A DNA stretch of 64,000 nucleotides, from contig JAZNFG010000053.1 in the NCBI GenBank assembly GCA_045589015.1, positions 5,118 to 69,117 on the forward strand, in the 5' to 3' direction. Under the pieces are notes generated by a model. It searched no databases. It was not told the origin of the DNA and was given only the letters and a program-made list of their open reading frames with translations. Of the stretch, positions 6,116-55,266 are shown piece by piece. A program made the translations under genes and the position numbers. Source of the DNA: Acutalibacteraceae bacterium. GTDB taxonomy: Bacteria; Bacillota; Clostridia; Oscillospirales; Acutalibacteraceae. How positions within the stretch are numbered: position 1 is the stretch's first letter; each line of letters begins with the position of its first letter.

Positions 6116-6117
6116 TT

Positions 6118-7569
6118 ATGGATTTTTCTAAATTAGCATCAGCTGCGCTAAAATCAATCACTCAGATCGGAAAATATGATTATACACAGCCCTTACCCGA
6201 CGGAGAGTTTCATTACACGAAAGAGGCAGAATCGGAATTCTTTACGGCAGGCTTCGGAAAAGCCGTAATGCTGCCCGATGATATCCGAACAAAAAAATAC
6301 TACATCGCAGGTTACGGAGAAAACAATCCCGCGAAGGGAGTCATAGATCCTCAGTATGCACACGCACTCTGGCTCGACGACAACAGCGGCAAGGGCGGAC
6401 ATCTTTTTGTTTCTCTTGACATAGTCGGACTTCTCAATAAAGATGTAAACGCTCTCAAAAAGGCTCTTTCGGAGTTTTCCGAAAAAACCAACTGCCGTTC
6501 AATCACAATAATGAGCACACACAACCACGCCGGTATAGATACAATGGGAATTTGGGGCAAATTGCCTCATACGGGAAAAAACCGTAAATTTATGACGATT
6601 CTCTTTAATGCCGTAATAACTGCTGCCGGCACGGCTTACAGAGAAAGAAAAGAAGGCAGATTATATCACGGTACTATTGAAGTTCCCGATATGCAGGAGG
6701 ATATACGAACTCCCGTCGTTTATTCAAAGACTCTCACAAGATTACGTTTTGTACCGAATGACGGCTCAAGAGAAATTTATTTTCTGAATTTTGCATCGCA
6801 TTCAGAATCATTACAAGGCTGTAACTCTCTTGTCAGCGCTGATTTCCCGTGTTATTTAAGAGAAAAAATCAGAAATGAAACGGGTGCCGAAACAATTTAC
6901 GGTGTAGGCGCAATCGGCGGTATGATCAGTATGGAAATTGAGGATGAGGACAGACTCAGACGTGAAAACAGATTGCTGGAATCAACTCGTAATATCGGCT
7001 ACAAGCTTGCGGACTATGCTTTGAGCATAAGCAATGAAAAGCTCCTCAAGCCGAGAATCAGCTTTATCAAGCAGGAATTCTACGTTCCCGTTGAAAATCC
7101 CGTGCTTACAATTGCGTGCCAGCTCGGTCTTTTGAATGCTGATGCATACTCCGTTCCGTATTCTGATACAAAAGCCCTTAAAACTGAGCTCAATTATTAT
7201 GAAATTGATGATCTTGCCATACTGATGATACCCTGTGAGCTTTTCCCCGAGCTTGCTTACGGCGGCTATCTGTCAGAAGAGGAATCGGCAGAAGGACTGT
7301 CCCCCGATATCAACCCCGTTCCGTTGGTTGATATTGCCGATAACAAAGAGCTTTTGATTTTCGGTCTTGCAAACGACGAATTAGGATACGTTTTACCGCC
7401 CAATGACTTTATGCTCAATACCGACTCTCCTTATCTTGATAAAGCAATTGACAGATTCGGAAGAAGACATTATGAAGAGACAAATTCAATGGGACCCGAA
7501 ACGGCACAGCTTATTGCTGATAATTTCAGCATCATTATGAACAAGGTTAATACTGCTAAGTCAGATTAA
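6118..7569 (+). CDS. Neutral/alkaline-ceramidase-N-terminal-like metallohydrolase, paralogue 2 (no signal peptide)
   Basis: GGAGGG RBS, and only 2 nt after the previous stop. Motifs: AGFGKAVMLP...YIAGY, STHNHAGIDTMG, ASHSES, IPCELF and FGLANDELGYVLP. Confidence 0.5.
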   Translation: MDFSKLASAALKSITQIGKYDYTQPLPDGEFHYTKEAESEFFTAGFGKAVMLPDDIRTKKYYIAGYGENNPAKGVIDPQYAHALWLDDNSGKGGHLFVSLDIVGLLNKDVNALKKALSEFSEKTNCRSITIMSTHNHAGIDTMGIWGKLPHTGKNRKFMTILFNAVITAAGTAYRERKEGRLYHGTIEVPDMQEDIRTPVVYSKTLTRLRFVPNDGSREIYFLNFASHSESLQGCNSLVSADFPCYLREKIRNETGAETIYGVGAIGGMISMEIEDEDRLRRENRLLESTRNIGYKLADYALSISNEKLLKPRISFIKQEFYVPVENPVLTIACQLGLLNADAYSVPYSDTKALKTELNYYEIDDLAILMIPCELFPELAYGGYLSEEESAEGLSPDINPVPLVDIADNKELLIFGLANDELGYVLPPNDFMLNTDSPYLDKAIDRFGRRHYEETNSMGPETAQLIADNFSIIMNKVNTAKSD

Positions 7570-7593
7570 TAAATTTGAAGGAGGAAAAATAAA

Positions 7594-9219
7594 ATGAACA
7601 AAGCAAAAAAAGTGATTGCTCTCGTGCTCAGCGTTTTAATGATTATGTTAACATTAAGCGTTCCTGCATCAGCAGCATCAAAAGTTGACCCGTCAGAGGG
7701 ACTCGGTGCACAGATAGAAGCAAAATTCTATCAGTTACTTGATAAACTCGTTGCTTGTCTCGGCAAGGTTCTCAATCTTTTCATCCCCGGACTTAACTGG
7801 GGCAGCAAATGGCAGAACTTTGACAGCTACCAAACACCTGACGATTTCTATGCCGGCGAGGAAAAATTCGATACGGAAGTAGCCGATGGCGCACAGTGGA
7901 GTGCAGGTTATGCTTATGCGTCCCTTCTTGAAGGTCTTGATATCTTCAACGGCACCTTCTATATGGCAGGTACGCTTGAGGTTACAGAAGGCAGAGTTCC
8001 CACTAAAGTTATTGACGATCAGGGTGTAAGCGTTATTGCACTTTCTGACGGAACAAGCGGCATTTACGTGCAGGCTGTTGTTGACGGTTACGGTCTTGCA
8101 AGAGGTGACGTGCTTGCAATAAGATCAAAGCTTGCTGATTTCGCTGAAGAAAACAACATTATAAGCATCAACGTTTCAGTTCTTCATCAGCATTCCTGCA
8201 TTGACATCCTCGGAATGGGTGCTCCCCTTCTCCCCGCAATTCTCAAAAACCCCGCTCTAAGCCTTATCGGCGGTGATATTGAGGATTACGTAGGCGGCAA
8301 ATCCGTAGAATTTATGAACAATATGTATGAAGTTGTATCAGAAGCAGTTATGACTGCTGTTGATTCAATGGAAACCGGTTCTCTCTACTACGGAAGCGTA
8401 GATGCAAGTGAGCTTATCTACGACAAGCGTGAGCCTATCACTTTCGACGGTGAGCTTCACAGATTCCGTTTTGATCCCGATAATGAAGAAACCGATGAAA
8501 TCTGGCTTTGCGAAGCCGGTATTCATTGTGTCGGCTTCGGTGCAGGCGCAGACGTTATTTCTGCTGACTTCCCCTACTATTTCAAGCAGTACGCAAAAGA
8601 AACAGCCAACGCTGACGTAGTTTACGTTCAGGGTGCTGAGCTTGCAATTACAACCGATTACACTTACGTAAGACCTGACTCCAGCGACGATGAGGTAAGA
8701 GTAAAGGCCTACGGTGAAGAGCTTGCTAAGAAGGCTATGTCAATTGACAATGAAGTTGAGCTTGAGCCCGTTCTCAACGTAGCTTTCAAGGAGGTTGTTA
8801 TTGATACTGATAATCAGATTCTTACTCTTGTGGTAAGAGAAGGCCTTATAAACAGCGTTATCACAAAGGATATGCTGGGATATAACATTATTACCGAAAT
8901 AGGCTATATGGAACTCGGCAACAAGATCGGCGTAGTGTTCATTCCCGGTGAAGTTGCTCCCGAAATTATCTGGGGCGGTGTTGTCGGTGCGGACAAGAGC
9001 TGGACTAACGAAACCTGGGACTACGCACCTATGGCTGAAACTGCCAAGATTGACAAGCTTCTTTGCTTCGGTCTTAACAACGACCAGATAGGTTATATTC
9101 TTGCAGATAACGATATTCATTCTATGTTTACGGAAAATGAAGAAATCAATGCTTCATCAACAAAATCAGGTTCTGCATTAACTGAGGCCTTTGAAGAGCT
9201 TATTGCAGCAGTAAAATAA
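7594..9219 (+). CDS. Neutral/alkaline-ceramidase-N-terminal-like metallohydrolase, paralogue 3 (secreted; signal peptide)
   Basis: GGAGG RBS. Signal peptide MNKAKKVIALVLSVLMIMLTLSVPASA. Motifs: VLHQHSCIDILG, GIHCVG, IPGEVA and FGLNNDQIGYILA. Confidence 0.5.
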   Translation: MNKAKKVIALVLSVLMIMLTLSVPASAASKVDPSEGLGAQIEAKFYQLLDKLVACLGKVLNLFIPGLNWGSKWQNFDSYQTPDDFYAGEEKFDTEVADGAQWSAGYAYASLLEGLDIFNGTFYMAGTLEVTEGRVPTKVIDDQGVSVIALSDGTSGIYVQAVVDGYGLARGDVLAIRSKLADFAEENNIISINVSVLHQHSCIDILGMGAPLLPAILKNPALSLIGGDIEDYVGGKSVEFMNNMYEVVSEAVMTAVDSMETGSLYYGSVDASELIYDKREPITFDGELHRFRFDPDNEETDEIWLCEAGIHCVGFGAGADVISADFPYYFKQYAKETANADVVYVQGAELAITTDYTYVRPDSSDDEVRVKAYGEELAKKAMSIDNEVELEPVLNVAFKEVVIDTDNQILTLVVREGLINSVITKDMLGYNIITEIGYMELGNKIGVVFIPGEVAPEIIWGGVVGADKSWTNETWDYAPMAETAKIDKLLCFGLNNDQIGYILADNDIHSMFTENEEINASSTKSGSALTEAFEELIAAVK

Positions 9220-13830: not shown

Positions 13831-15201
13831 TTACTTTTCTTCTTTGACTTCTATCCCCTTTTTCATAAGGATGATAAGAGGAATAAGTGCTACTGCGGCA
13901 GCAACTGCAGCATAAGCAAACATACTTGCAGAGGGAAGAAGCTTCTGAACGTGAACCTCGTTTTCGTAGTAAATCTGTGAGCCCTTGCTTGCAATTTCGC
14001 CGAGCTTAGGACCGATAACCATAGGAATAAGAACAACGAAAATCATTCTGACGCCCTGGAAAAGTCCTGCCTTGCCCTCGGGAGTAAAGTCTCTGACAAG
14101 CGCACCAAGCTGAATGGAGAAAATGAAATATGCAACTACTGCAGGGAGAGCAAATGCAATGAAATAGAAAATATTATTGCCTGCGAACATAGCTCCCATA
14201 AGTCCTACAAAGACAAAAACTATGCTGGGAATGAAAATAGACTTTTTGTCCTTTGCCGCCATTTTCATAAACACAACAGCAACGGCAACCGACACGGCAA
14301 GACCGATAACGACTGCAATAATGGGTAATGCCGAAATCTTGAAGTTTTCAAGTCCGGGAAGAAGCGCATGCTGGATATAAATAAAGAAATACGGAAAAAA
14401 TGTCTGGAAAGCAACGCTGATACAGCAGAATGCGGCAAGAGCAAGATACAGACGGCTGTTTTCTTTAATAACAGAAGGACGGAAGGTATATACAAGATTC
14501 TTGAAATAAGGAATTTTCTCATTTTCAGGGCTCTTGGATTTGGGTTCTTCAAGAATAAACAAACCGAGAACACCGCAAAGGATAACAAAAATACCGAGAC
14601 CGATAAAGAACGTGGTATAAGAAATCGCACCGGACTGTGCAAGAGTATTAAAGACAAGCACAATAACTGTAGCCACAAGCGGAAGAACAGCAAGAACAGC
14701 CTCAACCGTAGGTCTTACGGCAGGTGTTGTAATATCCGTTACCCACGCATTGAATGCAGAGTCGTTACTCGTTGAACCCATAGCAGTCATAATACAGTCC
14801 ATAATTATAACTGCCCATACGCTTGCAAGAAGAATCTTTACTTCATCGGTAATTCCTGTGAGAGACGAAATATTATCCTTTGTAATAAATCCGAAAAGTC
14901 CCGTGACAATACCCCACGCGATATATCCGACAGAAATAAACAGACGTCTGTTTCTGAGCTTATCGCTGAGATTACCCATAATGAAGGTGGTCAGCACGGC
15001 GACAACGGCAGAACAAGCAACCATCATATTTACGGCAGACATTGCTTCAAAGCTTGAAGCAGCCTCCTGAGTTGCATCAGCATAAATAGAATTATACATA
15101 AATACGTTGAAGCACATATTCTCAACATTCCAGGCAAGCTGTCCCGTAAGACTGAAAAGTATTATGTTAAACCAGGTTTTTTTAGTAAGCTTCTTTTCCA
15201 T
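13831..15201 (-). CDS. MFS-type transporter (12 TM)
   Basis: 456 aa and hydrophobic throughout, with the loop motif GNLSDKLRNRRLFI after TM2. GGAGGAG RBS. It lies 23 nt downstream of the GH3 gene. Confidence 0.7.
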   Translation of the reverse strand: MEKKLTKKTWFNIILFSLTGQLAWNVENMCFNVFMYNSIYADATQEAASSFEAMSAVNMMVACSAVVAVLTTFIMGNLSDKLRNRRLFISVGYIAWGIVTGLFGFITKDNISSLTGITDEVKILLASVWAVIIMDCIMTAMGSTSNDSAFNAWVTDITTPAVRPTVEAVLAVLPLVATVIVLVFNTLAQSGAISYTTFFIGLGIFVILCGVLGLFILEEPKSKSPENEKIPYFKNLVYTFRPSVIKENSRLYLALAAFCCISVAFQTFFPYFFIYIQHALLPGLENFKISALPIIAVVIGLAVSVAVAVVFMKMAAKDKKSIFIPSIVFVFVGLMGAMFAGNNIFYFIAFALPAVVAYFIFSIQLGALVRDFTPEGKAGLFQGVRMIFVVLIPMVIGPKLGEIASKGSQIYYENEVHVQKLLPSASMFAYAAVAAAVALIPLIILMKKGIEVKEEK

Positions 15202-15224
15202 AACTCTCCTCCGTAATTAAAGCT

Positions 15225-16916
15225 TTATTTGTTTCGGATCCTTGCAAAGAAGAATTCTTTTCTTTCGGGGGTATTGATAACAACAACGGGCTTAATCTGA
15301 TTGAGTACTCTGCCCTGTGCTACAAGCGAAGATTTATACGCATCGTAAGAACCCGTCTCAAGCTGATAAACGATAGGCTCTCTGAGCATTCCCCAACGTC
15401 TGTATTTATCATACTTTTCGTTGGTTTCTCTGAAGGCGGTATCGATAAATGCTTCAAGCTCCGCTTTATTTACAGTCGGAATATCAGATTCCGTATCACA
15501 CATAAAAGCATATCTGGGAAGAGCACCTTTCTCATCAGTATCACCATAGAAGCTGTAGCCGTTAAATGAAATATTGAACTTTTTCTGAATCTCATTGGCT
15601 ACGTAATCAAGCATCTGCGTGGTAGTCTTTTCGTTTGAAACGTTAAGACCCATATTTGATCTGTAAAGGAATTCAATCTTAGGTGTCTTATTATGCATTC
15701 CCGTAACTCTCACGATATCAAGTATGCGATATCTGTAAAGACCTGAGAAATTAGTCACAATAATTTCGTATTCCTTGCCGACTTCAAGCTCATCCATAAA
15801 CAGAGGTCTTGTTCCGTCGGGGGCATCAACAGGCAGGAACTCATAAATTATACTTCTCGGAAGAAGCACGTAGTCGTTTGCGTTAAGAGTTATCGGCATA
15901 GCCATATAGCCCTCAGAGGCGGCATATCCCATATTATGAAGCGGTATATCTCCGATATATCTGCGTAGCTTTTCAACGTAAACCGAAAGCGTAGAGCTTA
16001 TCATACCGTAGCCCCAGCAAACATTAGGCCATATTCTCTTTGCGATAGGCTCTTCCGTGTCAAAGCCCTTTTCAAATTCAGCGCGAAGCTCGGCGGCTCT
16101 CTTGGGATCGGGCTTTAATTTTTCATACTTTTTACGAAGAGACTCGGGACATCTGACAGACGGGTCAATTGTGCCGTTTTCAATATCCTTGCAAATCATT
16201 TCCCAATTTGCCTCAAGATATTCAAACATTGTAAGCATAAGAGTAATTACCATTGAGCCGAGGTATGTGACCTTGCGGTTGGTAAGAGCAAATCTCAGCT
16301 GAAAATAGGACATATCCGTATGCTCTTCATCCTCAGGGAAAAGAATATCGAGAGGGGTGGTTGAGAAAAACGGAATCAGCGGAAGAAGATATGTAAACGG
16401 AATCTGTCCCGCACCGTTACAACGCATACCGTTCTTAAGAGGATGTCCGTTAAGAGAAAGAAGAAGAGGTCCCATCTGTCCGGGAAGGCTTTTGTAAATA
16501 CCCTTTTCCTTAAAATACTTTGCGGCGCAAGCAGGAGTTGCGGCAAAGCCCATAGACTGCATATTAAAAAGGTCCTTTGCCGTTTTGGGCTGCAGCTTGG
16601 GAATACCAACGCTGCCCGAGGAGGAGCAATATCTTATTACCTTACTGCCTGTGATAACGTTCTCCTCATTATTATCAATCATTCGGTTAATAAGAGGCAG
16701 ATAATCCTCAAAGGTTGAAAGCGGTACCTTATCCTGAAATTCTCTGAGATTATGAATTTCAGAAAAGCCGTATTTTCTTCCGAGCTCACAATCCTTGTTT
16801 CTTTTTATAATTGCTTCAAGTGTTTTTTGCTGGGTCTCCATTGGAATAGAAGTAAAATGATTAAAGCCGGTAAAAACTATATTTCCCAAAAAAACACCGA
16901 TATTGGAAACTGCCAT
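15225..16916 (-). CDS. Bacterial GH3-family (JAR1-like) acyl-adenylate-forming amido-synthetase homologue, copy A
   Basis: GH3 nucleotide-binding motifs: CSSSGSVGIPKLQP (SSGTT-like), MGYAASEGYM (YxxSE-like) and GLYRYRILDIVRV (YRxGD-like). The ATG at 16916 lies 8 nt after AAGGAGA. Confidence 0.7.
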   Translation of the reverse strand: MAVSNIGVFLGNIVFTGFNHFTSIPMETQQKTLEAIIKRNKDCELGRKYGFSEIHNLREFQDKVPLSTFEDYLPLINRMIDNNEENVITGSKVIRYCSSSGSVGIPKLQPKTAKDLFNMQSMGFAATPACAAKYFKEKGIYKSLPGQMGPLLLSLNGHPLKNGMRCNGAGQIPFTYLLPLIPFFSTTPLDILFPEDEEHTDMSYFQLRFALTNRKVTYLGSMVITLMLTMFEYLEANWEMICKDIENGTIDPSVRCPESLRKKYEKLKPDPKRAAELRAEFEKGFDTEEPIAKRIWPNVCWGYGMISSTLSVYVEKLRRYIGDIPLHNMGYAASEGYMAMPITLNANDYVLLPRSIIYEFLPVDAPDGTRPLFMDELEVGKEYEIIVTNFSGLYRYRILDIVRVTGMHNKTPKIEFLYRSNMGLNVSNEKTTTQMLDYVANEIQKKFNISFNGYSFYGDTDEKGALPRYAFMCDTESDIPTVNKAELEAFIDTAFRETNEKYDKYRRWGMLREPIVYQLETGSYDAYKSSLVAQGRVLNQIKPVVVINTPERKEFFFARIRNK

Positions 16917-17013
16917 ATACACTATCTCCTTTTTAAATTTTCATATAATTTTATCACAACATTGTTAATCTTTCAACTCTAATATTTATCATTTAAGTTA
17001 TTTACACGCTAAA

Positions 17014-17547
17014 TTATTTTTTCTTATGCTCGCCGATATGCTTTTCCATCCATATCATATCATACCAGCGTTCAAATTTATAAGCGCATTTATTAAAGCG
17101 TCCGACAAAGCTGTAATCCATGTGTGAATGAAACTGCATACTGTTATTGTTGAGATACTCATCCGCTTCTTCAATAAAAGCTATACAGGCATTTACATTC
17201 TCATACCCCATAGCTTTCAGCTCCTCCTCAAGCTTTTGCAGAAGTGCTTTGCCGAAGCCGTTTTTCTGAAGGCCGTTTCTGAGATAGATGGTCGTTTCCA
17301 CCGAATATTTGTAGGCCTCTCTCGTTTTGAACGGACCTGCATAAGCATAACCTGCAATTTCTCCGCAGTATTCAAGGACAAGATAAGGATATTTTTTAAG
17401 AGTTCCTGCTATACGGTCACGGAATTCTTCAACAGAAGGAACGTCATATTCAAAGGAAATCGCAGTATTAAGCACGTAATAAGAATAAATTTCTCTTATT
17501 GCCGCAGCATCATCAACCGTGGCATATCTTATAAAAAAGTCCGTCAT
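17014..17547 (-). CDS. GNAT acetyltransferase, phosphinothricin/methionine-sulfoximine N-acetyltransferase-like
   Basis: IRYATVDDAAAIREIYSYYVLNTAISFEYDVPSVEEF...AGYAYAGPFKTREAYKYSVETTIYL...GFGKALL is the typical PAT-family pattern. GAGGTG RBS. Confidence 0.65.
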   Translation of the reverse strand: MTDFFIRYATVDDAAAIREIYSYYVLNTAISFEYDVPSVEEFRDRIAGTLKKYPYLVLEYCGEIAGYAYAGPFKTREAYKYSVETTIYLRNGLQKNGFGKALLQKLEEELKAMGYENVNACIAFIEEADEYLNNNSMQFHSHMDYSFVGRFNKCAYKFERWYDMIWMEKHIGEHKKK

Positions 17548-17683: not shown

Positions 17684-19933
17684 ATGAAAAAGATGAAAAA
17701 ATTAACGGCATTCTTTCTTTCGGTTGTGATTATTGCTGCTTCTGCAGTTATTGCATCCTATGCCGCCGATGCCGATACACGTATTTTGAATATTTATTCC
17801 GACGGTATGCTGTTTCTTCAGAATTCTGAGGCTGTAATCTCCGGCACAGGCACTCCCGGCGAAAAAATAACGCTGACACTCACGGATAACCAAGATGTGA
17901 TTGCCGAATCGGAGACGGAAGTTCTTTCCGACGGTTCGTTTAACGTCAGCTTCAATACACCTGCAGGAAGCTTTACGGAATATACCATCGTGCTTAAAGA
18001 AAACGGCAAAGTATTTGATACACTTGAAAACGTTGTTTTCGGTGAATTATGGCTTGCAAGCGGTCAGAGCAATATGCAATATCCTCTGGCACAGTCAAAA
18101 ACCGGACAGGATATGTACAAAAATTCACGAAAGCTGAGCCCTTGGCTTAGAGTATTGCTTGTACCTTCTTACCCCGAATACAATAATTCCACCGAGCTCG
18201 TACCCGCACTCGAACAAAATGATATTACGGATGCCTTATGGGTAAACGGTGAAAATACGGCAGTTTACAATATGAGTGCCGTTGCATATTTCTTTGCAGA
18301 AAAGCTTATGGACACTCTCGGTATGCCCGTGGGAATACTGAATTCATCACTCGGCGGTTCATCAATTCGCTCCTGGCTTTCAAGAGAAGCAATAGAAAGC
18401 AATCCCGAATTTAAGGCATATCTTTCAGAACGGGGAGAATACTTCTCACTTTCAGAATGGAATGAATCCGCTCAAAGTATTTATTATGATATGACCGCTA
18501 ATTTCAATCAGAAAATTGCTCCGTTAAAGAATTTTCGCATTTCGGGAATGCTGTGGTATCAGGGAGAAACTGATCTTATAACAGGCAATACCCGATATGA
18601 TGATGCTCTTGACCTTTTACAGCAATCATACACCGACCTGTTTAACTACAGCGACGGCTTGCTCCCTCTTATTTTTACACAGATTGCTTCATACAACTAT
18701 TCCGAAACATCTGATATGCTCGACAACTGGAATTTTGATTTCACAAAAATGCAACAAAAAGAGTCATCGTCAAGAGCGCTGATTACAATTTATGACATCC
18801 CTCTTACCTATCTTCCCGAAGCAGGGCTTATTCATCCCGAAAGAAAAGAAGAGGTCGGTCAGCGTATGGCAGCCGCGGCAAACGGACTTTTATATAACAA
18901 AAATGACGGCTATACGACAGCTACAATCAAAAGCACGGAAATTAAGGATAACAGCATTTATATAAAGCTCGATAACACAGGCAGCGGATTAATAATTGAC
19001 GGAAAATCCGCCAAGGGCTTTAGTATTTGCGGAAGCGACGGCATCTACGTTTCAGCAACAGCGGAGGTGGTTTCACCCGATACCGTAAGGGTTTATTCTG
19101 CGGAGGTTTCTCATCCGGAATCCGTAACCTATGCTTTCGGCGTTGCGAATCAGAGCGCAAATCTTTATGCCTCAATTAACGGTGAATTATCTCTTCCTGT
19201 CGCTCCTTTTATAACGAATCCCGAATATTCTCAAAATATATGGATACAAAAATCCTGGTGCGACTGTGATGAGGAGCTTACGTGGCACACTGAGGATGAT
19301 GAATTCTCAGGCTATTACAGCACGTGGAACGGTAATAATGCAGAAATTTCCTATTCGGAAAATGACAGTCAGAACAATACCGTCGGCCTTGGCGTGTCAT
19401 CTCAGAAATGCTCCTTCAGCATCTCACCCGTTATTTCCTATAAAGATAATCTTACACAAAAGATTTTCAAGGATTCGGACAACAACCTTTCAAAATACGG
19501 TACAATAAGCTTTTACGTACGCAATAACGGTAACGAAGCCGTAATATTTGAGGGACTGAGATTCTATCAGAATCCCATTTTATGGTACTCCCCCGAGGTT
19601 TCGGGCACACTTGACACAGCCGCCGAAATCCCCGCAGACGGTCAGTGGCATCAGATTACGCTTAACTTAAATAAATTATATCATCTCGGCAATGAATGCT
19701 CCTTATCCTATACCAACGAAAAGCTTAAGGACATTTCAGAAATACGCTTCGTATTTTCTGCAAACGGAAACAGCATCTCAAAACTCAGCATAGACAATAT
19801 AACATTTGCACCGACAGGCAAAATCACATCAATTCCCTATGAAGTAGATATTAAAAATGCTGACAACATTTTTGAATTATTTACTGCTGTTTTCTTAACT
19901 ATTGTCGGAAAAATTGCTTTGTTATTCAGTTAA
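17684..19933 (+). CDS. Secreted sialate O-acetylesterase-like (SASA/DUF303) protein with a C-terminal extra domain and hydrophobic tail
   Basis: Signal peptide MKKMKKLTAFFLSVVIIAASAVIASYA. SGNH-like catalytic block LWLASGQSNMQYP, then LGGSSIRSW and WYQGETD. The terminal segment is IFELFTAVFLTIVGKIALLFS. Confidence 0.7.
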   Translation: MKKMKKLTAFFLSVVIIAASAVIASYAADADTRILNIYSDGMLFLQNSEAVISGTGTPGEKITLTLTDNQDVIAESETEVLSDGSFNVSFNTPAGSFTEYTIVLKENGKVFDTLENVVFGELWLASGQSNMQYPLAQSKTGQDMYKNSRKLSPWLRVLLVPSYPEYNNSTELVPALEQNDITDALWVNGENTAVYNMSAVAYFFAEKLMDTLGMPVGILNSSLGGSSIRSWLSREAIESNPEFKAYLSERGEYFSLSEWNESAQSIYYDMTANFNQKIAPLKNFRISGMLWYQGETDLITGNTRYDDALDLLQQSYTDLFNYSDGLLPLIFTQIASYNYSETSDMLDNWNFDFTKMQQKESSSRALITIYDIPLTYLPEAGLIHPERKEEVGQRMAAAANGLLYNKNDGYTTATIKSTEIKDNSIYIKLDNTGSGLIIDGKSAKGFSICGSDGIYVSATAEVVSPDTVRVYSAEVSHPESVTYAFGVANQSANLYASINGELSLPVAPFITNPEYSQNIWIQKSWCDCDEELTWHTEDDEFSGYYSTWNGNNAEISYSENDSQNNTVGLGVSSQKCSFSISPVISYKDNLTQKIFKDSDNNLSKYGTISFYVRNNGNEAVIFEGLRFYQNPILWYSPEVSGTLDTAAEIPADGQWHQITLNLNKLYHLGNECSLSYTNEKLKDISEIRFVFSANGNSISKLSIDNITFAPTGKITSIPYEVDIKNADNIFELFTAVFLTIVGKIALLFS

Positions 19934-20001
19934 ATAAATAAGAACAGACTTGTTTTCTGAATTCTGTTCTTCCCATACGTTCATTATAATTCAATATTTC
20001 T

Positions 20002-20048
20002 AAAAACGGTCAGCAAAAAATCAAAGTTTTTTGACGACCGTTTTTTAT
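20002..20048. terminator. Long A/T-flanked hairpin; terminator for the 17684 gene (+)
   Basis: AAAAACGGTCAGCAAAAAA...TTTTTTGACGACCGTTTTTT, an imperfect long inverted repeat ending in a T-run. Confidence 0.6.
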
Positions 20049-20050
20049 AT

Positions 20051-20090
20051 ATTAGAAACACCTACAGTCCCAAATCTTTGAGGCTGTAGG
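20051..20090 (-). terminator. Hairpin downstream of the LOR/SDH-like gene (minus strand)
   Basis: CCTACAG...CTGTAGG stem followed on the minus strand by TGTTTCTAATATATAAAAAA. The U-tract is weak. Confidence 0.4.
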
Positions 20091-20138
20091 GTAGATAAAT
20101 CGTAAGGTTAGTTTACTTGGCTAATAAACCGTAACCTT

Positions 20139-21236
20139 TTACATAAGGCCTAATCCCTTCGCAACAAGGGTGATAAAATCCTGAACGTTTGCAACCACCG
20201 TAATTGCACTAAGACTACCTCTGTCAAGCAGCTTATTAACAACAAATTCATCAATGTCAACGGTATAGATATATAAAGGACGTATGGTTTCGTCTTCCAT
20301 AACTCTGAATGAAGGTGTCATATTTCCCGTGGCAATTGTATGAAGCATTGTTGCCATACAAATAACCGTTGTTGCCTTCTTTACTATACCTCTCATAGCG
20401 TCAGCCGCTTTATAAACGTCTCCGATAACCTCAGGAAGCGGTCCGTCATCACGTATGGAGCCTGCAAGCACAAAGGGCACGTTATTCTTTACACAGCTGC
20501 ACATAATACCGTCATCAAGGTTATGGTCCTTTATGAACTGCGGAATTGAACCGCTTTTTCTGACAAGATTGCATATATCAAGGTGATTATAATGACCGTT
20601 CGGCTGAGATTTTTGGGTATATATATCCTGACCGAGAGCAGTATGAAGCAATGCACCCTCAAGGTCGTGAGTGGCAAGTGCATTTCCTGCAAGTACTCCG
20701 TGGGCATAACCGTTATTGATAAGAAGCTCCATCGCCTTTCTTGCATCAGCGTCAAAGGCAAATGCGGGGCCCATTACCCAGACAATATTACCGTGCTCCT
20801 TTTCGTGCTTGAGAAGCTCAAACAGATTATCATAATCTCTCGCATAGGAGGTTTCACGGCTTCTGCCCTGACGGAAAACAAATTTATCCTCAAGCTCGGC
20901 ATTTTCATCCGTAAAGCCGTCAACGTGAAGGAAAATTCCCTCTTCACATCTTTCGGTACGTCCGAGAATTACCCTGTCCCCCTTTTTCAGATTTCTTGCC
21001 TCAACTACCTTCAGACTATCCCCGTCTCCGATAACAACACAAGAATCCATACGGCTTTCACGTGCAAGAATCCATTTACCGTTAATCTTGAAATATTCGG
21101 GATACATAGACGTGCTGTGATAATAGTCCGGAGCGACTCCGTCACATTCGGAAACACCGACTTTTACGTCAGGTGCATTAAGGAAAATTTCTTTTGTAAA
21201 ATCGGGATGATGATATTCGGGCATCTTAAATGACAT
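20139..21236 (-). CDS. LOR/SDH-conserved-region (TIGR00300-like) protein; possible archaeal-type ornithine cyclodeaminase
   Basis: 365 aa. Contains GNIVWVMGPAFAFDA, GVLAGNALATHDLE and VLAGSIRDDGPLPEV, which as I recall are characteristic of the TIGR00300 / deoxyhypusine-synthase-like fold family. AAGGAGA RBS. Confidence 0.45.
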   Translation of the reverse strand: MSFKMPEYHHPDFTKEIFLNAPDVKVGVSECDGVAPDYYHSTSMYPEYFKINGKWILARESRMDSCVVIGDGDSLKVVEARNLKKGDRVILGRTERCEEGIFLHVDGFTDENAELEDKFVFRQGRSRETSYARDYDNLFELLKHEKEHGNIVWVMGPAFAFDADARKAMELLINNGYAHGVLAGNALATHDLEGALLHTALGQDIYTQKSQPNGHYNHLDICNLVRKSGSIPQFIKDHNLDDGIMCSCVKNNVPFVLAGSIRDDGPLPEVIGDVYKAADAMRGIVKKATTVICMATMLHTIATGNMTPSFRVMEDETIRPLYIYTVDIDEFVVNKLLDRGSLSAITVVANVQDFITLVAKGLGLM

Positions 21237-21256
21237 AAGCTATCTCCTTATTCAAA

Positions 21257-21940
21257 TCAAAAAAATAAAATTTTTACAATATAGATCACCGCAAGATGAA
21301 GCGGATAAAACACATAGAAAAGATATTTCAGATTAAGCTTTCCTCTTTTACCGTTATAAAGCGCGATAAAAGCAACACTTAACAGAGAAAACCATTGTAT
21401 TCCCCCAAGTTCAAAGGAAAGGGGAATCAATACGATAAAGGCGGCAAGAAGCTTATAGGATTTCTTCGGTGCAAAATAGACAGCTATCGGCAGCAGTAAG
21501 CCGAAAAAACCGTAATCAATATGAAATCCCTTCAAAAACGAAGGAACAACAAAGCATAAAGCTAAAGCTACCGCAATATCGGCGGCTAAAATAACACCCG
21601 ATAAAATGTTTTTCTTTTTCAGAAAATGCTCCGCCGCATAAATAGTCAAAATTGAAAGCGCAAAGGTCACAAGTACGTTCTGATACATGGACCCTTCAGC
21701 AATAAAGTAAACTATCTGGCACCCTGCCGCAAGACCTGCTATTTTCAGAAAATACTTCTTTTTATCTCTCGTATAATAGCAACCCTCTGCTATCATAAAA
21801 GAAAACACGGGAAATGCAAGCCGTCCGAAAATCTGCAGAATCGTAAGCTGCGGAAACAGCTCTTTTCCGATATGGTCACTAAGCATTGAAATAACCGCAA
21901 GAATTTTCAGCTGATTATTGGTAAGAGTTAATTTCTTCAT
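21257..21940 (-). CDS. TraX-family integral membrane protein
   Basis: N-terminal LTNNQLKILAVISMLSDHIGK (TraX signature region) and about 7 TM segments. The start overlaps the upstream stop as ATGA (21937-21940). Confidence 0.65.
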   Translation of the reverse strand: MKKLTLTNNQLKILAVISMLSDHIGKELFPQLTILQIFGRLAFPVFSFMIAEGCYYTRDKKKYFLKIAGLAAGCQIVYFIAEGSMYQNVLVTFALSILTIYAAEHFLKKKNILSGVILAADIAVALALCFVVPSFLKGFHIDYGFFGLLLPIAVYFAPKKSYKLLAAFIVLIPLSFELGGIQWFSLLSVAFIALYNGKRGKLNLKYLFYVFYPLHLAVIYIVKILFF

Positions 21941-23322
21941 AGTGATTTAATCCTGCTTTCAAATTCCGTAAAAAAGCGTTCAAGCACTTCCCTGTCGTTA
22001 TCGTTTCCTCTAAGACACATTGAAGCTGAAAGCGTTCCGTTAATTGAAAGTGCAGTCATAACGGCACAGGGCTTATTTTTAGCAGCTCCTGCAACAAAGG
22101 CATCAAAAGGACCTTTACAGCCGAGAATAAACTCCGACGGCTCAATTACACCTACGTTGCTCACGGAAAAAACCGGATTGTTATAAAATAACTTAACAAT
22201 GCTTTCTGCCTGAATATAAACCATATTCTTATAAGCCATTCTGAGAAGAGGAAGACCGTGAAGTCCCATAAACTCATCGTTCTTCAGCTCCTTCATTTTA
22301 CGGCTAACAATGTCAATAGTTTGCTTAAAGCTGTCTCCCCGTCCGTCAATATCGCAATGAACGAACGAAACGTGATTGGTATATCCTATACCCGACAAAT
22401 CCTTTATGTGCCGTCTCAGGTCAATCGCACATGCAACGCTGATTCTGTCACGGGATGAAATACCTGCAATTTCTGCAAAGGAATCAATATACGAGGCAAG
22501 AAGCAGATCCGTTACCGTAGCACCCGCACTTTTAACATAATTCCTTGCTTTTGTAAAATGCTCTCTGTCTATTTTTCGGGAAACAATTATTATATCGTCT
22601 TCCCTGTTATCGTTTTCAAAGGGAAAACGAAGCTTGAGTCTCGGTGAAACATTTGCAAACTGTCTTTTCGCCTTTCTCTTCTTGCCTTTATCAAAATCCT
22701 TATATACTTCCTCGTAGCTTCTTGAACCAAAGGAAAAAGAGAGAGGAGATACCCCATTATTTACGTATTCCGTGTAATTACGGCAGAAGTCTCTCCAAAA
22801 CATCTTAAAGCCGCCGCCGTCCATACACATATGATTCCATATAAAGCATATATAGGTTTTTCCGTTACAGATAAATAATCCGATATTCATCTGAACACGG
22901 CTCTTCAAAGGGATACTTCTCTCAAAAAATGCTGCTCTTGATTTTTCTATATCGTTTGTTTCTTCAACAGTTACAAACTCATCAACCGAATAATCCGATA
23001 CTCTCCAATAAGGCATCACAGGATGATTAATTACCTGAGCTCTGAGACAAAGCACGGTTTCAAGACAGCAGACCGCAGTATTTTTGAATTTTTCAACGTC
23101 AATGATAAAATCATAATCCAATTCAAAACGCGCAAGCCTATCCATATAATTCCGACACATCAGATTGACCTTATCATACATTTCGGTTGGCAGTCTTTTT
23201 TTTGATAATTCCGGATTACGGCTTTTAAGCTCAATAAGCTCCCTTATGACCTTTTCATCCGTCAAGCCTTTTTTACGGTATTCTTCAAAACAGGAAGCAT
23301 CGGAGTATTCTGCTTTTTTCAT
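21937..23322 (-). CDS. Stand-alone condensation-domain-like (HxxxDG) acyltransferase
   Basis: About 460 aa, the size of a C-domain. Active-site-like FIWNHMCMDGGGFKMF (HxxxDG). No carrier-protein or adenylation domain is fused. The start is the ATG at 23322 (alternatively the TTG at 23334), directly after the GH3 stop at 23338. Confidence 0.55.
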   Translation of the reverse strand: MKKAEYSDASCFEEYRKKGLTDEKVIRELIELKSRNPELSKKRLPTEMYDKVNLMCRNYMDRLARFELDYDFIIDVEKFKNTAVCCLETVLCLRAQVINHPVMPYWRVSDYSVDEFVTVEETNDIEKSRAAFFERSIPLKSRVQMNIGLFICNGKTYICFIWNHMCMDGGGFKMFWRDFCRNYTEYVNNGVSPLSFSFGSRSYEEVYKDFDKGKKRKAKRQFANVSPRLKLRFPFENDNREDDIIIVSRKIDREHFTKARNYVKSAGATVTDLLLASYIDSFAEIAGISSRDRISVACAIDLRRHIKDLSGIGYTNHVSFVHCDIDGRGDSFKQTIDIVSRKMKELKNDEFMGLHGLPLLRMAYKNMVYIQAESIVKLFYNNPVFSVSNVGVIEPSEFILGCKGPFDAFVAGAAKNKPCAVMTALSINGTLSASMCLRGNDNDREVLERFFTEFESRIKSL

Positions 23323-23337
23323 TAAATCACCCAAAAA

Positions 23338-25026
23338 TCAAACTATACGAGAAAAGAAGAAATCCTTTTTCTCATCATTATCAATTACCTTAATGGGCTT
23401 GACCTGATTGAGATTAGCACCTCTTTTTCTGAGAACCTCTCTGTACTCGTCATAAGTACCGTGTCTGAGGAATTTTACTTCAGGATGTCCCAATGCACCG
23501 CTCTTGATAAGCGGCTCAACAGAAACGTTGCCCTTGCAAAGCATTATTTCAAAGGCTTCGTTATATTTTTCTTTCTTTTCTTCACTTGCGGGATTTGCTG
23601 TTTCGAGAAGCAATACGTAGTGTCCCGGAGAAGTTGAACGGTCAGCATAAATACTGTAGCCTATATACAAATCATCCATATATTCGGACAGATTTTCAAC
23701 CATCTCGTCAAATGCCATCTGACTGATTTTTTCACCGCTTATGTTTGCAATCTGATTGAGTCTGTAGCAGAAGGTAATCTTAGGAGAACGGTGATAATAT
23801 CCCGTACATCTGACAACGTCCTCTATTCTGTATCTGTAAAAGCCGCTCGTATTAGTAAGAATCAGCTCATACTCTTTGCCCGGCTCAAGATCGCGGATCG
23901 TAAGAAGGTTATCATAGTCCGGACTGTCAACGGGTCGGAATTCATAAAAGCCGTTTTGCGGCAGCATTACGTATTCAAAGGAATTAAGCTCAATGGGAAC
24001 AGCCATAAAGGCTTCGGTTGCGGTATATCCGAGATAATGAATAGGCATTTCCTCGCCGATATAACGTCTGAGTTTTTTTGCATAAAGCGACAAGGCACCC
24101 GTTCCCATTCCGTAAAGCCATTCCACCTTCGGCCATATACGGGGAATTATCGGGGAGGAATCAAAGCCCTTTCGGAATTCTCTTCTTAACTCTTCCGCTC
24201 TTTTCGGCATTGGCTTGAGCTTTTTGGAAAGCTTTTTTCTTATATGCTCGGGAACCTGAATACTGTCATTGATTATTCCCTTTTCAATATCATCACAAAG
24301 CATTTCCCAGTTTTCTTCCATATAAAAAAACATTGATTCGAGAGTTGTGATAAATATCGTGCCGAGATAGCTTGTCTTCTTGTTGATTAATGCAAAGCGC
24401 AGCTTCAGATAGTGCATATCCATATCGGCACCCGGTTCCGGAAACAGCACCTCCTTCGGAGAGGTTGCAAAAAAAGGAACAAGAGGTCGGATATTCAGAA
24501 GAGGAATTGAAGAGAGACAGCTTATAGTACCCCCCTTTACCTTTCTCCAGGACGTTTCAGCCGTAAGCAGTCCCTTCTGAGGAGGTAATAATCTGCCCTT
24601 TCTCCAAAACCATTTTACCGCACAGCCTATCGGTGCGGAAAAACCGAAGCATTGAGCAACCCATTCAGCCCAATAAGTGAGCGGTACAAGCTTCGACTTA
24701 CCTGTGCTTCCCGAGCTTTCGGTAAAACGTCTGACAGGCATATTGGTAAGGAGTCCTTTTTCTCCGTCAGCCATTCTGTGCACGTATTCGTCGTAATCCG
24801 CATAAACGGATAAGGGTACAATTTTCTGATAGGCCTCAACCGAATCAACGTCTTTGAAATTATGCAGTCTGCCGTAAACGGTAGTCTTATTTCTTCGCAT
24901 AAGACGCATTACGATTTTTTGCTGAATGCGCCAGGCACGTCTTGAATATATATTCAGCTTTATGTGCTCACACACTCCGACGAAGGCACCGTATCCGGAA
25001 AGCAGATATCCTTTTATGTCTATCAT
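23338..25026 (-). CDS. Bacterial GH3-family (JAR1-like) acyl-adenylate-forming amido-synthetase homologue, copy B
   Basis: TESSGSTGKSKLVP, LGYTATEAFM and GFYRYRIEDVVRC. Long collinear similarity to copy A, for example ENWEMLCDDIEKG versus ANWEMICKDIENG, and KPMPKRAEELRREFRKGFD versus KPDPKRAAELRAEFEKGFD. AAGGAG RBS. Confidence 0.7.
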   Translation of the reverse strand: MIDIKGYLLSGYGAFVGVCEHIKLNIYSRRAWRIQQKIVMRLMRRNKTTVYGRLHNFKDVDSVEAYQKIVPLSVYADYDEYVHRMADGEKGLLTNMPVRRFTESSGSTGKSKLVPLTYWAEWVAQCFGFSAPIGCAVKWFWRKGRLLPPQKGLLTAETSWRKVKGGTISCLSSIPLLNIRPLVPFFATSPKEVLFPEPGADMDMHYLKLRFALINKKTSYLGTIFITTLESMFFYMEENWEMLCDDIEKGIINDSIQVPEHIRKKLSKKLKPMPKRAEELRREFRKGFDSSPIIPRIWPKVEWLYGMGTGALSLYAKKLRRYIGEEMPIHYLGYTATEAFMAVPIELNSFEYVMLPQNGFYEFRPVDSPDYDNLLTIRDLEPGKEYELILTNTSGFYRYRIEDVVRCTGYYHRSPKITFCYRLNQIANISGEKISQMAFDEMVENLSEYMDDLYIGYSIYADRSTSPGHYVLLLETANPASEEKKEKYNEAFEIMLCKGNVSVEPLIKSGALGHPEVKFLRHGTYDEYREVLRKRGANLNQVKPIKVIDNDEKKDFFFSRIV

Positions 25027-25188
25027 TTTAGGACTCCTTTAGAATTTTTCTCTATTTTATCACAAAAAATATACCGATTCAACTGTTTATAACAAGTTAA
25101 ATTAATATAAACACAATATAAAATTTTTCTTGTGATTATACTCGCATTATGATATTATTTACTTACTAAGTATAAGGAGACAACTGAA

Positions 25189-26160
25189 ATGAACGCTCAG
25201 GACAGAATGATGAACCATAAATGGGGCATTTTCAATCATTACCTGTACGGTACTGAAAAAGGTGCATCAACGTTGGATGAAATGGCAGAGGAATGGAATG
25301 AACAGGTAAATTCCTTTGACACCGAAAGATTGGCTAAAGCTCTGCACGATATCTGTTGCGGTTATTATATTATTACCGTTATGCAAGGCTCTCGGTTTAT
25401 GATTGCACCCAACGATGCTTTTACAAGAATTACGGGAATCGCTCCCGGAAAAGCCTGTGCCGAGCGCGACCTTATAAAGGATATCGGTGAAGCTCTCAAA
25501 AAATATGATATCGACCTTTTTCTGTATTTCACGGGAGACGGCCCGCATTTTGATCCAATCGCAGGACCTGCTATGGGACTTTACGAGGACTATACAGCAG
25601 GAATTCGCGGAAAGGTTGACAGAAATTTCGTAAGCAACTGGGCTTGCGTTATGGAGGAATACGCCGTACGATACGGTGACCTCATCAAGGGCTGGTGGGT
25701 TGACGGATGCTATGAAAGCCTCGGCTACAACAATGAGCTCCTGTCAATTTACTTTAACGCTATGAAAAAAGGAAATCCCGACGTAATGTCTGCATTTAAC
25801 AGCGGCACGGCAAGCTTCGTCAGCAAGGACGGAAGCGATACGCCTGTAAAATGGTTTGAAAATGAAGGCTTTACCTGCGGTGAAGATAATGACTTTACTT
25901 ATATTTTCAAAACAAGATTCACAAACGGTGCCCAAAACCATCTGCTTATCCCCTTCGGAAATTACAGAGACGGAAATATCTGTGCAGGCTGGTGCAATAC
26001 GGGAGTAAGAAGAAGCAAGGAATATGTTGCCGACTACATAAAAAAGAACAACGAAGCCGGTGCGGTTATCACGGTAGATATTTTTGTTGATCATACGGGT
26101 GCCTTTGATCCCGAGCAGGTTGAAGCATTAAAGTATATCGGAAAAAAAATACGGGAATAA
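25189..26160 (+). CDS. GH29-like (alpha-L-fucosidase-superfamily TIM barrel) protein, divergent
   Basis: HKWGIFNHYLYG, FDTERLAKAL, RDLIKDIGEALKKYDIDLFLYF and GWWVDGCY are collinear with GH29 landmarks. The canonical KHHDGF block is absent. Confidence 0.35.
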   Translation: MNAQDRMMNHKWGIFNHYLYGTEKGASTLDEMAEEWNEQVNSFDTERLAKALHDICCGYYIITVMQGSRFMIAPNDAFTRITGIAPGKACAERDLIKDIGEALKKYDIDLFLYFTGDGPHFDPIAGPAMGLYEDYTAGIRGKVDRNFVSNWACVMEEYAVRYGDLIKGWWVDGCYESLGYNNELLSIYFNAMKKGNPDVMSAFNSGTASFVSKDGSDTPVKWFENEGFTCGEDNDFTYIFKTRFTNGAQNHLLIPFGNYRDGNICAGWCNTGVRRSKEYVADYIKKNNEAGAVITVDIFVDHTGAFDPEQVEALKYIGKKIRE

Positions 26161-40880: not shown

Positions 40881-40889
40881 CACTTGCTC

Positions 40890-52308: not shown

Positions 52309-52310
52309 AC

Positions 52311-52362
52311 ACGTAAAAACAAAAAAGGGGGTTGTAAAAAATGAAGCTTTTTACATCCCCTT
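52311..52362 (-). terminator. Strong hairpin plus T-tract between the repeat lipoprotein gene and apbE
   Basis: On the minus strand, AAGGGGATGTAAAAA-gcttcat-TTTTTACAACCCCCTT is followed by TTTTGTTTTT. The hairpin ends 16 nt, and the T-tract about 5 nt, before the apbE ATG. Confidence 0.6.
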
Positions 52363-52369
52363 ATATTTG

Positions 52370-53377: not shown

Positions 53378-53412
53378 TGTAAAATACCTCCGTTAATTTT
53401 TTAACCTTGCAA

Positions 53413-53441
53413 ATACTACTATATATTAATCAAATTGTCAA
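53413..53441 (-). promoter_or_regulatory. Sigma-A-type promoter candidate for the repeat lipoprotein gene
   Basis: On the minus strand: TTGACA (53441-53436), 17 nt, then TAGTAT (53418-53413). Confidence 0.45.
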
Positions 53442-53493
53442 GCAATATTAAAAAAATTCATAATTTGTTAGGATTCAGCCGCGGCAGGCAAAT

Positions 53494-53997: not shown

Positions 53998-54007
53998 AGC
54001 TGACCTC

Positions 54008-55251: not shown

Positions 55252-55266
55252 AATGCTCCCCCCTTA

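Follow-up and report, generated by a model that had tools for sequence, protein, structure and literature searches.

In a stretch of 64,000 nucleotides (nt) from an Acutalibacteraceae bacterium (contig JAZNFG010000053.1; the whole stretch is called the window in the following), four genes are packed tightly on the minus strand. They encode a GH3 acyl-acid amido synthetase (gene 1), a free-standing enzyme with the fold of condensation domains (gene 2, the C-like enzyme), a TraX-family membrane protein (gene 3) and a putative ornithine cyclodeaminase variant (gene 4). As judged from the gene order in related genomes, the functional unit is the GH3/C-like pair with TraX as an occasional accessory, because the two genes of the pair are adjacent in all loci compared while TraX and the cyclodeaminase rarely accompany them. 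A first-pass annotation, made from the letters of the window, had read all four genes as possibly one compact, carrier-independent pathway, which is reasonable for genes 1 and 2 but does not hold for the four genes as a conserved unit. In the following we establish the family and fold of the four proteins, their transcription unit and the conservation pattern, and we propose a reaction for the pair. The unit consists of the following elements:

25054..25082, minus strand: candidate sigma-70-type promoter, TTGAAT, 17-nt spacer and extended -10 box TG-n-TAAAAT (consensus scan)
23338..25026, minus strand: gene 1, GH3 acyl-acid amido synthetase, 562 amino acids (aa) (open reading frame with Pfam and PDB matches)
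21937..23322, minus strand: gene 2, free-standing enzyme of condensation/PapA5/WS-DGAT fold, 461 aa
21257..21940, minus strand: gene 3, TraX-family polytopic membrane protein, 227 aa, outside the conserved core
20139..21236, minus strand: gene 4, putative nickel-pincer-nucleotide (NPN)-dependent ornithine cyclodeaminase variant, 365 aa, accessory or passenger
19995..20138, minus strand: 3' hairpin cluster including a predicted bidirectional intrinsic terminator (RNA folding)

Conservation of the GH3/C-like pair

To see which genes belong together we compared 80 loci, one per species, in which the relatives of gene 2 are 58–75% identical to it. All of the genomes are Acutalibacteraceae, Oscillospiraceae or Clostridia metagenome-assembled genomes, mostly from the guts of ruminants and other animals. 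In 80 of the 80 loci the C-like gene directly follows the GH3 gene, with a median spacer of 4 nt (range -4 to 31), and the pair is also present in loci L001-L004. It is found again in two divergent lineages (L087, L089, L098 and L099), where the partner is only about 40% identical to gene 2 and the GH3 enzyme 67–71% identical to gene 1. The flanks of the pair differ completely across these loci: fucosidase, DHDPS, class-3 aldehyde dehydrogenase (ALDH3), GalT and GH43 genes are among the upstream neighbours, and an M20 peptidase, Glyphos_transf, a radical-SAM cluster and an MFS transporter are among those downstream. As both flanks have turned over completely, GH3 and the C-like gene have stayed adjacent despite extensive rearrangement.

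Near the pair, TraX is found in 8 of these 80 loci and the cyclodeaminase in 6, and only 3 loci have all four genes, for which reason the four-gene synteny that the first-pass annotation expected in related genomes was rejected as a conserved unit. Of the co-occurrence of GH3, C-like gene and TraX that it had suggested looking for, the GH3/C-like part is present in every locus and the TraX part is not. The pair occurs only in a single family of uncultured gut Clostridia, where it is conserved in about a hundred related species. More distant relatives of gene 2 (P0124, P0126 and P0130, 35–39% identity) have no link to GH3, and the coupling to GH3 is therefore a property of one subfamily. Fusion proteins of GH3 and C-like enzyme, which would be of the Rosetta-stone type, were not present among the 150 best representatives, and a literature search found no pairing of GH3 with a condensation enzyme. 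In the case of P0124 (39% identity; L091:4776-8369), a 724-aa protein without Pfam match follows the gene on the same strand.

The two enzymes of the pair

Gene 1 matches the GH3 N, M and C domains of Pfam (PF03321, PF23571 and PF23572) with 242.4, 82.8 and 59.2 bits, respectively, against a gathering threshold of 23.6 each. Its matches in the PDB are JAR1 (E-value 7e-52, 180 bits) as well as GH3.1, GH3.5, GH3.6, GH3.8 and GH3.12 (1e-40 to 1e-49), among them enzymes that conjugate IAA or benzoate. The motifs SSGSTGKSK, YTATE and YRYRIED align with the nucleotide-binding motifs SSGTSQGRPK, YGSSE and YRYRLGD of JAR1, and thus all three ATP/AMP motifs of the family (pattern SSGTxxGxxK, YxxSE, YRxGD) are intact. 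By these matches gene 1 is a bona fide GH3 enzyme, as had been recognised from its motifs, and it is predicted to be ATP-dependent, adenylating and amide-forming. The GH3 enzymes of plants adenylate a carboxylic acid and then ligate it to an amino acid.

The accompanying statement that bacterial GH3 homologues are without established function is outdated, as OlsH of Singulisphaera acidiphila was characterised in 2025 as a GH3 enzyme that forms N-acyl-ornithine from a free fatty acid with ATP and Mg2+, with a separately encoded OlsI responsible for the O-acylation (PMC12493201). Orthology of gene 1 to OlsH was considered and rejected, since the NCBIfam equivalog NF052613 gave 62.5 bits against a cutoff of 620 and aligned to residues 294-537 only; gene 1 resembles the hormone-conjugating GH3 enzymes of plants more closely than it does the OlsH model. 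To our knowledge OlsH is the sole bacterial GH3 enzyme with a demonstrated function, and we know of none that has been characterised in Bacillota.

Gene 2 alone reaches 25.1 bits on Pfam Condensation (PF00668) and therewith misses the gathering threshold of 30.6, and because of this we aligned 90 sequences of its family, down to about 20% identity. Among these 90 members 82 match Condensation (best E-value 1.9e-18), 34 match PapA_C and 23 match WS_DGAT_C, the latter two being lipid O-acyltransferase families that match the C-terminal lobe. In the PDB the family profile matches condensation (C) and epimerisation (E) domains (6e-23), PapA5 (1e-7) and WS/DGAT (1e-4). The AF2 (AlphaFold) model of gene 2 (pLDDT 96.7, pTM 0.94) shows the two-lobed, CAT-like fold for which a structure prediction had been recommended, and Foldseek places it next to heterocyclisation (Cy), C and E domains (E-values about 1e-20) with template-modelling (TM) scores of 0.71/0.75 to 8s6l and 0.61/0.70 to PapA5, these fold matches having 12–16% sequence identity. 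Both His164 and Asp168 of the HxxxD site are invariant in gene 2 and all 89 aligned relatives, and the first His of the HHxxxDG motif is Asn here (NHMCxDG). With family profile, model and Foldseek in agreement, gene 2 is, on sequence and predicted structure, a two-lobed CAT-like enzyme of the condensation/PapA5/WS-DGAT fold, and its earlier description as a C-domain-like protein with an HxxxD motif was correct. In public sources members of the family are labelled 'hypothetical' or 'NRPS condensation-like uncharacterized protein', NRPS standing for nonribosomal peptide synthetase.

Known enzymes that resemble gene 2 are PapA5 from the biosynthesis of phthiocerol dimycocerosates (PDIM), WS/DGAT and VibH, all of them stand-alone and two-lobed enzymes with an HxxxD site that acylate a free alcohol or amine. 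They differ from it in being distant matches, as the E-values given above for PapA5 and WS/DGAT indicate, and in that no polyketide synthase (PKS), FAAL or acyl carrier protein (ACP) partner is found here. C-domain-fold enzymes normally use thioester-tethered donors. With largest spacers of 15 and 20 nt the unit has no room for a carrier protein, and it contains neither NRPS or PKS genes nor genes for an ACP or a peptidyl carrier protein (PCP), as the first-pass annotation had already remarked. No carrier protein recurs among the 80 loci either.

Genes accompanying the pair in relatives

The best clue to the substrate of GH3 appears to be its linkage to ALDH3. Such a gene is located on the same strand, mostly at most 25 nt upstream of GH3, in 23 of the 80 species (loci L014, L017, L018, L024, L025, L030-L055, L076, L078 and L082; for example L014:2032-3405, 457 aa), so that these species have an operon of the order ALDH3-GH3-C-like. 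ALDH3 enzymes convert hydrophobic aldehydes, and also aromatic ones, to acids, which is the type of substrate that GH3 needs. The best PDB matches of the linked enzymes are the diaponeurosporen-aldehyde dehydrogenase of S. aureus (5e-128), human fatty aldehyde dehydrogenase (5e-116) and benzaldehyde dehydrogenase (1e-94), and ALDH3A1 is also among them. The first of these structures, 6K0Z, belongs to staphyloxanthin synthesis (PMC12410373).

In another subclade (L048, L060, L066-L068, L073 and L080; for example L067:5477-8240) a CrtI/amine-oxidase-like flavoprotein of about 523 aa and an FNR-like reductase of about 400 aa with a C-terminal 2Fe-2S ferredoxin domain directly precede GH3. A seven-gene oxidative operon was considered for L060, L067 and L068 and had to be rejected in part, as only the flavoprotein and the reductase abut GH3. 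The genes farther upstream in these three loci encode IolE (3e-83), a Gfo/Idh/MocA protein and an aldehyde dehydrogenase that is 25–28% identical to the ALDH3 type, and these inositol-catabolism genes are probably unrelated. About 31 loci have a gene of the DHDPS family upstream of the pair in the same orientation; the family includes hydratase-aldolases that release aromatic aldehydes.

Downstream of the pair, a PRK08262-type M20 peptidase gene follows immediately and convergently in 57 of the 80 loci (for example L050:15176-16684, minus strand) and is itself followed by dnaE and gcpE. In plants, ILR1-type M20 amidohydrolases hydrolyse the conjugates formed by GH3. As the peptidase gene is located on the other strand and stays together with dnaE and gcpE, its adjacency may be inherited synteny rather than the sign of a conjugate hydrolase. 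In NCBIfam the protein is a generic 'M20 family peptidase' with scores below the cutoffs. The window has its own copy away from the pair:

39507-40883, minus strand: M20 peptidase, PRK08262-type

In L001 (11428-20097), and also at about 12.4-19.8 kb in L026 and L033, the pair has as its neighbour a giant protein (about 2000 aa) without Pfam match. The one in L001 is accompanied by a radical-SAM enzyme and by ScmC-family and PqqD-like proteins, so that the region looks like a cluster for a ribosomally synthesised and post-translationally modified peptide (RiPP).

Proposed reaction of the pair and alternatives

For the GH3/C-like pair, which forms a translationally coupled unit, we propose, by analogy with known systems, a carrier-free sequence with a second acyl transfer on an amino-acid conjugate; we hold this model tentatively and give it slightly less than an even chance. 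Its substrates, step order, acyl donor and product we infer as follows. GH3 would adenylate a free hydrophobic carboxylic acid with ATP and join it to an amino acid through the amine of the latter. The carboxylic acid might be fatty, isoprenoid or aromatic, and in many relatives it would be made from the aldehyde by the ALDH3 encoded upstream. Through its His-x-x-x-Asp site the C-like enzyme would then carry out a second acyl transfer on the conjugate, forming an ester or amide on a hydroxyl group or a second amine, with an ordinary acyl-CoA or acyl-ACP from primary metabolism as donor. The order of the two acylation steps could also be reversed. The product would be a doubly acylated, lipoamino-acid-like conjugate of an amino acid made without a dedicated carrier protein, and TraX may modify or handle it at the membrane.

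The OlsH/OlsI system is similar to the pair in that a bacterial GH3 enzyme uses a free acid and ATP without any carrier and a second acyltransferase from the same operon completes the product (PMC12493201). It differs in the second enzyme, since OlsI is an alpha/beta-hydrolase whereas gene 2 has the condensation/PapA5 fold, and no alpha/beta-hydrolase is encoded in the four-gene unit. Moreover, there is no OlsG methyltransferase here and the host belongs to the monoderm Clostridia, where such lipids are not known.

Several points weigh against the proposed sequence. The substrate is not readable from the sequence, and with 180 bits to JAR1 compared to 62.5 bits on the OlsH model a fatty acid is not implied by homology. 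The linkage to ALDH3 is a feature of a sister subclade and does not occur in the lineage of the window itself, the pair has no lipid-metabolism gene as a constant neighbour, and the flanks in the window are made up of glycan-degrading genes. A CoA or ACP donor for the C-like enzyme is assumed, while tethered donors are the norm for C-domain folds. All sampled genomes are from one bacterial family, and the 80 of 80 loci are thus not 80 independent events. Finally, there is no description of acyloxyacyl amino lipids from Bacillota (PMC12971839).

A different role for the C-like enzyme is suggested by Arabidopsis, where isochorismoyl-glutamate is formed by the GH3 enzyme PBS3 (GH3.12) and then processed in salicylate synthesis by EPS1, a BAHD-fold protein that acts as a lyase and whose catalytic His is replaced by Ser and whose acyl-CoA site is lost (PMC11605079). 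By this precedent, in which an enzyme of the HxxxD (CAT/BAHD/condensation) superfamily acts on a GH3 product without a CoA thioester, GH3 in our bacteria would conjugate a small, possibly plant-derived or aromatic acid and the C-like protein would eliminate, cyclise or isomerise without a second donor. Gene 1 is most similar to plant GH3 enzymes, and the hosts are herbivore-gut bacteria with plant- or host-glycan-degrading genes around. The capacity of ALDH3 enzymes for aromatic aldehydes and the DHDPS-family gene in front of the pair would fit as well. Nevertheless, we consider this role unlikely. No gene of an isochorismate or aromatic-acid pathway is present in the window, and in contrast to EPS1 with its lost His and acyl-CoA site, gene 2 and its 89 aligned relatives keep His164 and Asp168, which favours true acyl-transfer chemistry. 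The plant system also differs in that its genes are unclustered and its substrate is isochorismate.

We likewise do not expect the two enzymes to work in reverse order, with the C-like enzyme N-acylating an amino acid from acyl-CoA or acyl-ACP and GH3 coupling the carboxylate to a second amino acid or amine to give an N-acyl dipeptide or amide. The conservation of the pair speaks for this order as much as for GH3 acting first, GH3 enzymes accept varied carboxylic acids and the C-domain fold natively forms amides. However, the position of ALDH3 before GH3 in 23 species fits an aldehyde-derived acid better than an N-acyl amino acid; the GH3-first gene order supports neither way.

Transcription of the unit and the place of genes 3 and 4

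The tight packing of the four genes on the minus strand is as the first-pass annotation had described it, including the open reading frame coordinates, the ATGA at 21940-21937 by which genes 2 and 3 overlap, and the 20-nt spacer, carrying an AAGGAG Shine-Dalgarno sequence, that precedes the gene 4 start at 21236. The motifs quoted there are all present, NHMCMDGGG of gene 2 included. For the junction of genes 1 and 2 the claim was that gene 2 begins directly after the GH3 stop codon (TGA at 23340-23338). The adjacency itself is right, but the start has to be moved from TTG 23334 to ATG 23322, because the public database copy P0001, which is 100% identical, has 461 aa; the spacer between the GH3 stop and this ATG is 15 nt. 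With 391 homologues of gene 2 and 1173 of gene 3, both are, by homology, real and conserved genes and no chance open reading frames.

Upstream of GH3 the -35 and extended -10 boxes of the promoter align in L005, L007, L008 and L021, and the promoter is the sole conserved leader element across the five related genomes. The hairpins that had been noticed after the last gene are confirmed by folding of the 3' flank (20138..19995), which gave a minimum free energy of -46.5 kcal/mol (z = -5.46, 0 of 200 shuffles equally stable) and three hairpins. The last one has a GC-rich stem (20040-20007) with a U-run at 20006-20002 and an A-run at 20046-20041, and from these features it is a bidirectional intrinsic terminator common to the unit and the convergent esterase gene at 17684..19933. 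In this genome, promoter, junctions and terminator taken together, the four genes very probably form a single transcript. Two more stable hairpins are located at 20061-20138 (minus strand) between the gene 4 stop and the terminator, and together with the terminator they give an Rfam TD-1 match far below threshold (25.7 vs 64.5 bits, E-value 0.45), which is probably due to chance. A riboswitch or T-box in the leader, which might have served as a substrate clue, was rejected, as this chance-level TD-1 was all that Rfam gave in 19800-25400; for the whole window the Rfam scan yielded no RNA element at gathering thresholds.

Gene 3 belongs to the TraX family, as previously assigned, with 118.1 bits on Pfam PF05857 (threshold 25) over residues 8-222 of 227. 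It shares this domain, its polytopic membrane character and a similar size with TraX of the F plasmid, which is required for N-acetylation of pilin, and with TrbP of RP4. In contrast to these, it represents a chromosomal subfamily of Clostridia and falls below the cutoffs of the conjugative equivalogs TIGR02755, NF010260 and NF010454 (32.5 vs 149, 20.4 vs 419 and 41.7 vs 206 bits). No tra/trb conjugation or pilin genes are present in the 64-kb window, and a literature search found no role of TraX in Clostridia. The AF2 model (pLDDT 90.9) is all-helical with about ten helices, and Foldseek found no significant neighbour in the PDB (best E-value 0.84, TM score below 0.32). Because this confident model has no solved neighbour, the earlier label 'membrane acyltransferase-like' is without structural support and goes back to F-plasmid genetics only. 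A membership of TraX in the Acyl_transf_3 clan was considered, but neither a Pfam scan at E-values of at most 0.1 nor Foldseek against the PDB supported it. In the subfamily of gene 3 the polar residues D22, H23, R40, E52, R199, K205 and H215 are invariant, which suggests, but does not prove, an enzyme active site.

Gene 4 reaches 616.8 bits on NCBIfam NF052526 (ODC_var; cutoff 440) over residues 1-363 of 365, 256.7 bits on TIGR00300, where the cutoff of 410.8 is not reached, and 214 bits on Pfam ArgZ-like_C_2nd. In the PDB it matches 3c2q (1e-55) and the C-terminal domains of ArgZ (1e-49 to 1e-53). Its proposed place in the TIGR00300/LOR-SDH-like, ornithine-cyclodeaminase family can thus be kept, and gene 4 is a putative NPN-dependent variant of these cyclodeaminases. 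It is like the ArgZ-type and TIGR00300 enzymes in its full-length alignment to ArgZ-type domain structures and unlike them in that the activity of the variant model is only 'putative'. According to Desguin 2025, as cited in PMC13524815, the family uses a nickel-pincer adenine dinucleotide cofactor. Genes for its synthesis (LarB, LarC and LarE) were not found in the 64-kb window.

If the four genes formed one dedicated pathway, GH3 and the C-like enzyme would make an acyl amino acid, TraX would be a membrane acyltransferase that uses it as substrate and the cyclodeaminase would supply proline or consume ornithine for the product. Both the window and L005 have the four genes overlapping or at most 20 nt apart, with one promoter and one terminator, and this speaks for such a pathway. 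So does the overlap of TraX with the stop codon of the C-like gene in the window, L005, L007, L026 and L033, and the use of ornithine by OlsH makes an ornithine-metabolising neighbour suggestive. On the other hand, of the 67 loci that extend at least 3 kb downstream of the pair, 7 have TraX, 6 have the cyclodeaminase and 3 have both, and all but one of these cases are in the closest relatives: TraX occurs in 6 of 17 close and 1 of 50 distant loci, the cyclodeaminase in 6 of 17 and 0 of 50. The cyclodeaminase gene is found behind sbcD-sbcC in L009 and L021 and behind an unrelated flavoprotein gene in L008, and in L012, L016 and L019 an EamA transporter gene on the opposite strand separates the C-like gene from TraX. 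TraX orthologues with 54–57% identity also occur in unrelated contexts of the same bacterial family, either after rpmB or overlapping a flavin-reductase gene near an ABC transporter. Together with the missing match of the TraX model to any solved acyltransferase fold, this makes a four-gene pathway quite improbable. Most likely gene 4 is an independent gene of amino-acid metabolism (ornithine to proline and ammonia) that is co-transcribed here by chance, and most simply local deletions have brought it into the transcript. That all the genes are functionally unrelated and merely packed in a compact genome is probably true for gene 4 and possibly for gene 3, but as a description of the whole unit it is very improbable, since the adjacency of genes 1 and 2 survives full flank turnover and divergence of the partner to 40% identity.

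In L096 (5447-6696) and L100 (7447-8696) the TraX orthologue (54–57% identical) overlaps the end of the flavin-reductase gene; a four-gene ABC importer precedes it, and an AMP-binding enzyme is encoded a few kb farther downstream. This context may be the more usual home of the TraX subfamily of gene 3.

Implications

Since OlsH, the GH3-dependent, carrier-free synthesis of acyl-amino acids is already known in kind, and the pair is not a categorically new system. It is possible, although we rather doubt it, that the pair represents a carrier-free route, unrecognised until now, by which uncultured Clostridia of the herbivore gut make acylated amino-acid metabolites or lipids, a route that is often fed by ALDH3 and in which a C-domain-fold enzyme acts on a non-tethered GH3 product. 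If true, it would add a new biosynthetic logic beside NRPS, NRPS-independent siderophore (NIS) synthetase and OlsBA/OlsF/OlsHI chemistry and be a possible source of host-active N-acyl amides. As a two-gene module of about 100 gut species, the pair could reveal new metabolites of the N-acyl amino-acid type or new membrane lipids of the herbivore gut microbiome. With regard to enzymology, the C-domain-fold enzyme could prove to act carrier-free on the product of an adenylating amide synthetase. For annotation, the unit teaches that a tight operon from a single genome may mix a conserved core with lineage-specific passengers.

Other genes in the window

A second GH3 module is located in the window at 13831-17547 on the minus strand, with its GH3 paralogue 3 kb away from the four-gene unit:

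17547..17014, minus strand: GNAT, ArsN1/phosphinothricin-acetyltransferase-like (158 bits, cutoff of 210 not reached)
16922..15225, minus strand: GH3 paralogue b, 42% identical to gene 1
15201..13831, minus strand: MFS_1 transporter

This module likewise pairs a GH3 enzyme with an acyltransferase and has an exporter-type transporter in addition. The order GNAT-GH3b-MFS_1 recurs at 88–94% identity in L005, L006, L016 and L019, and GNAT-GH3b also in L028, where the end of the locus cuts GH3b. On the OlsH model NF052613 paralogue b scores 57.2 bits (cutoff 620).

PADLOC matched none of the proteins to an anti-phage defence system. The remaining features of the window are the following:

4424-6115 and 7594-9219, plus strand: two proteins of about 550 aa flanking the ceramidase-like gene, no Pfam or NCBIfam match
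6118-7569, plus strand: neutral-ceramidase-like protein, a weak match (35.6 bits vs gathering threshold 32.1)
51262-54421, minus strand: NusG-domain-II protein, heptaprenyl-diphosphate-synthase-I-like protein, protein without Pfam match and ApbE
54418-59966, minus strand: complete operon of an Rnf-type ion-translocating ferredoxin:NAD+ oxidoreductase (rnfC, D, G, E, A and B-like)

The Rnf operon and the genes downstream of it are ordinary chromosomal content, and the window is part of the core genome. The ceramidase-like gene and its two neighbours form a three-gene cluster on the plus strand (4424-9219), and a long-chain acyl-CoA-ligase-like gene is located at 276-2090.

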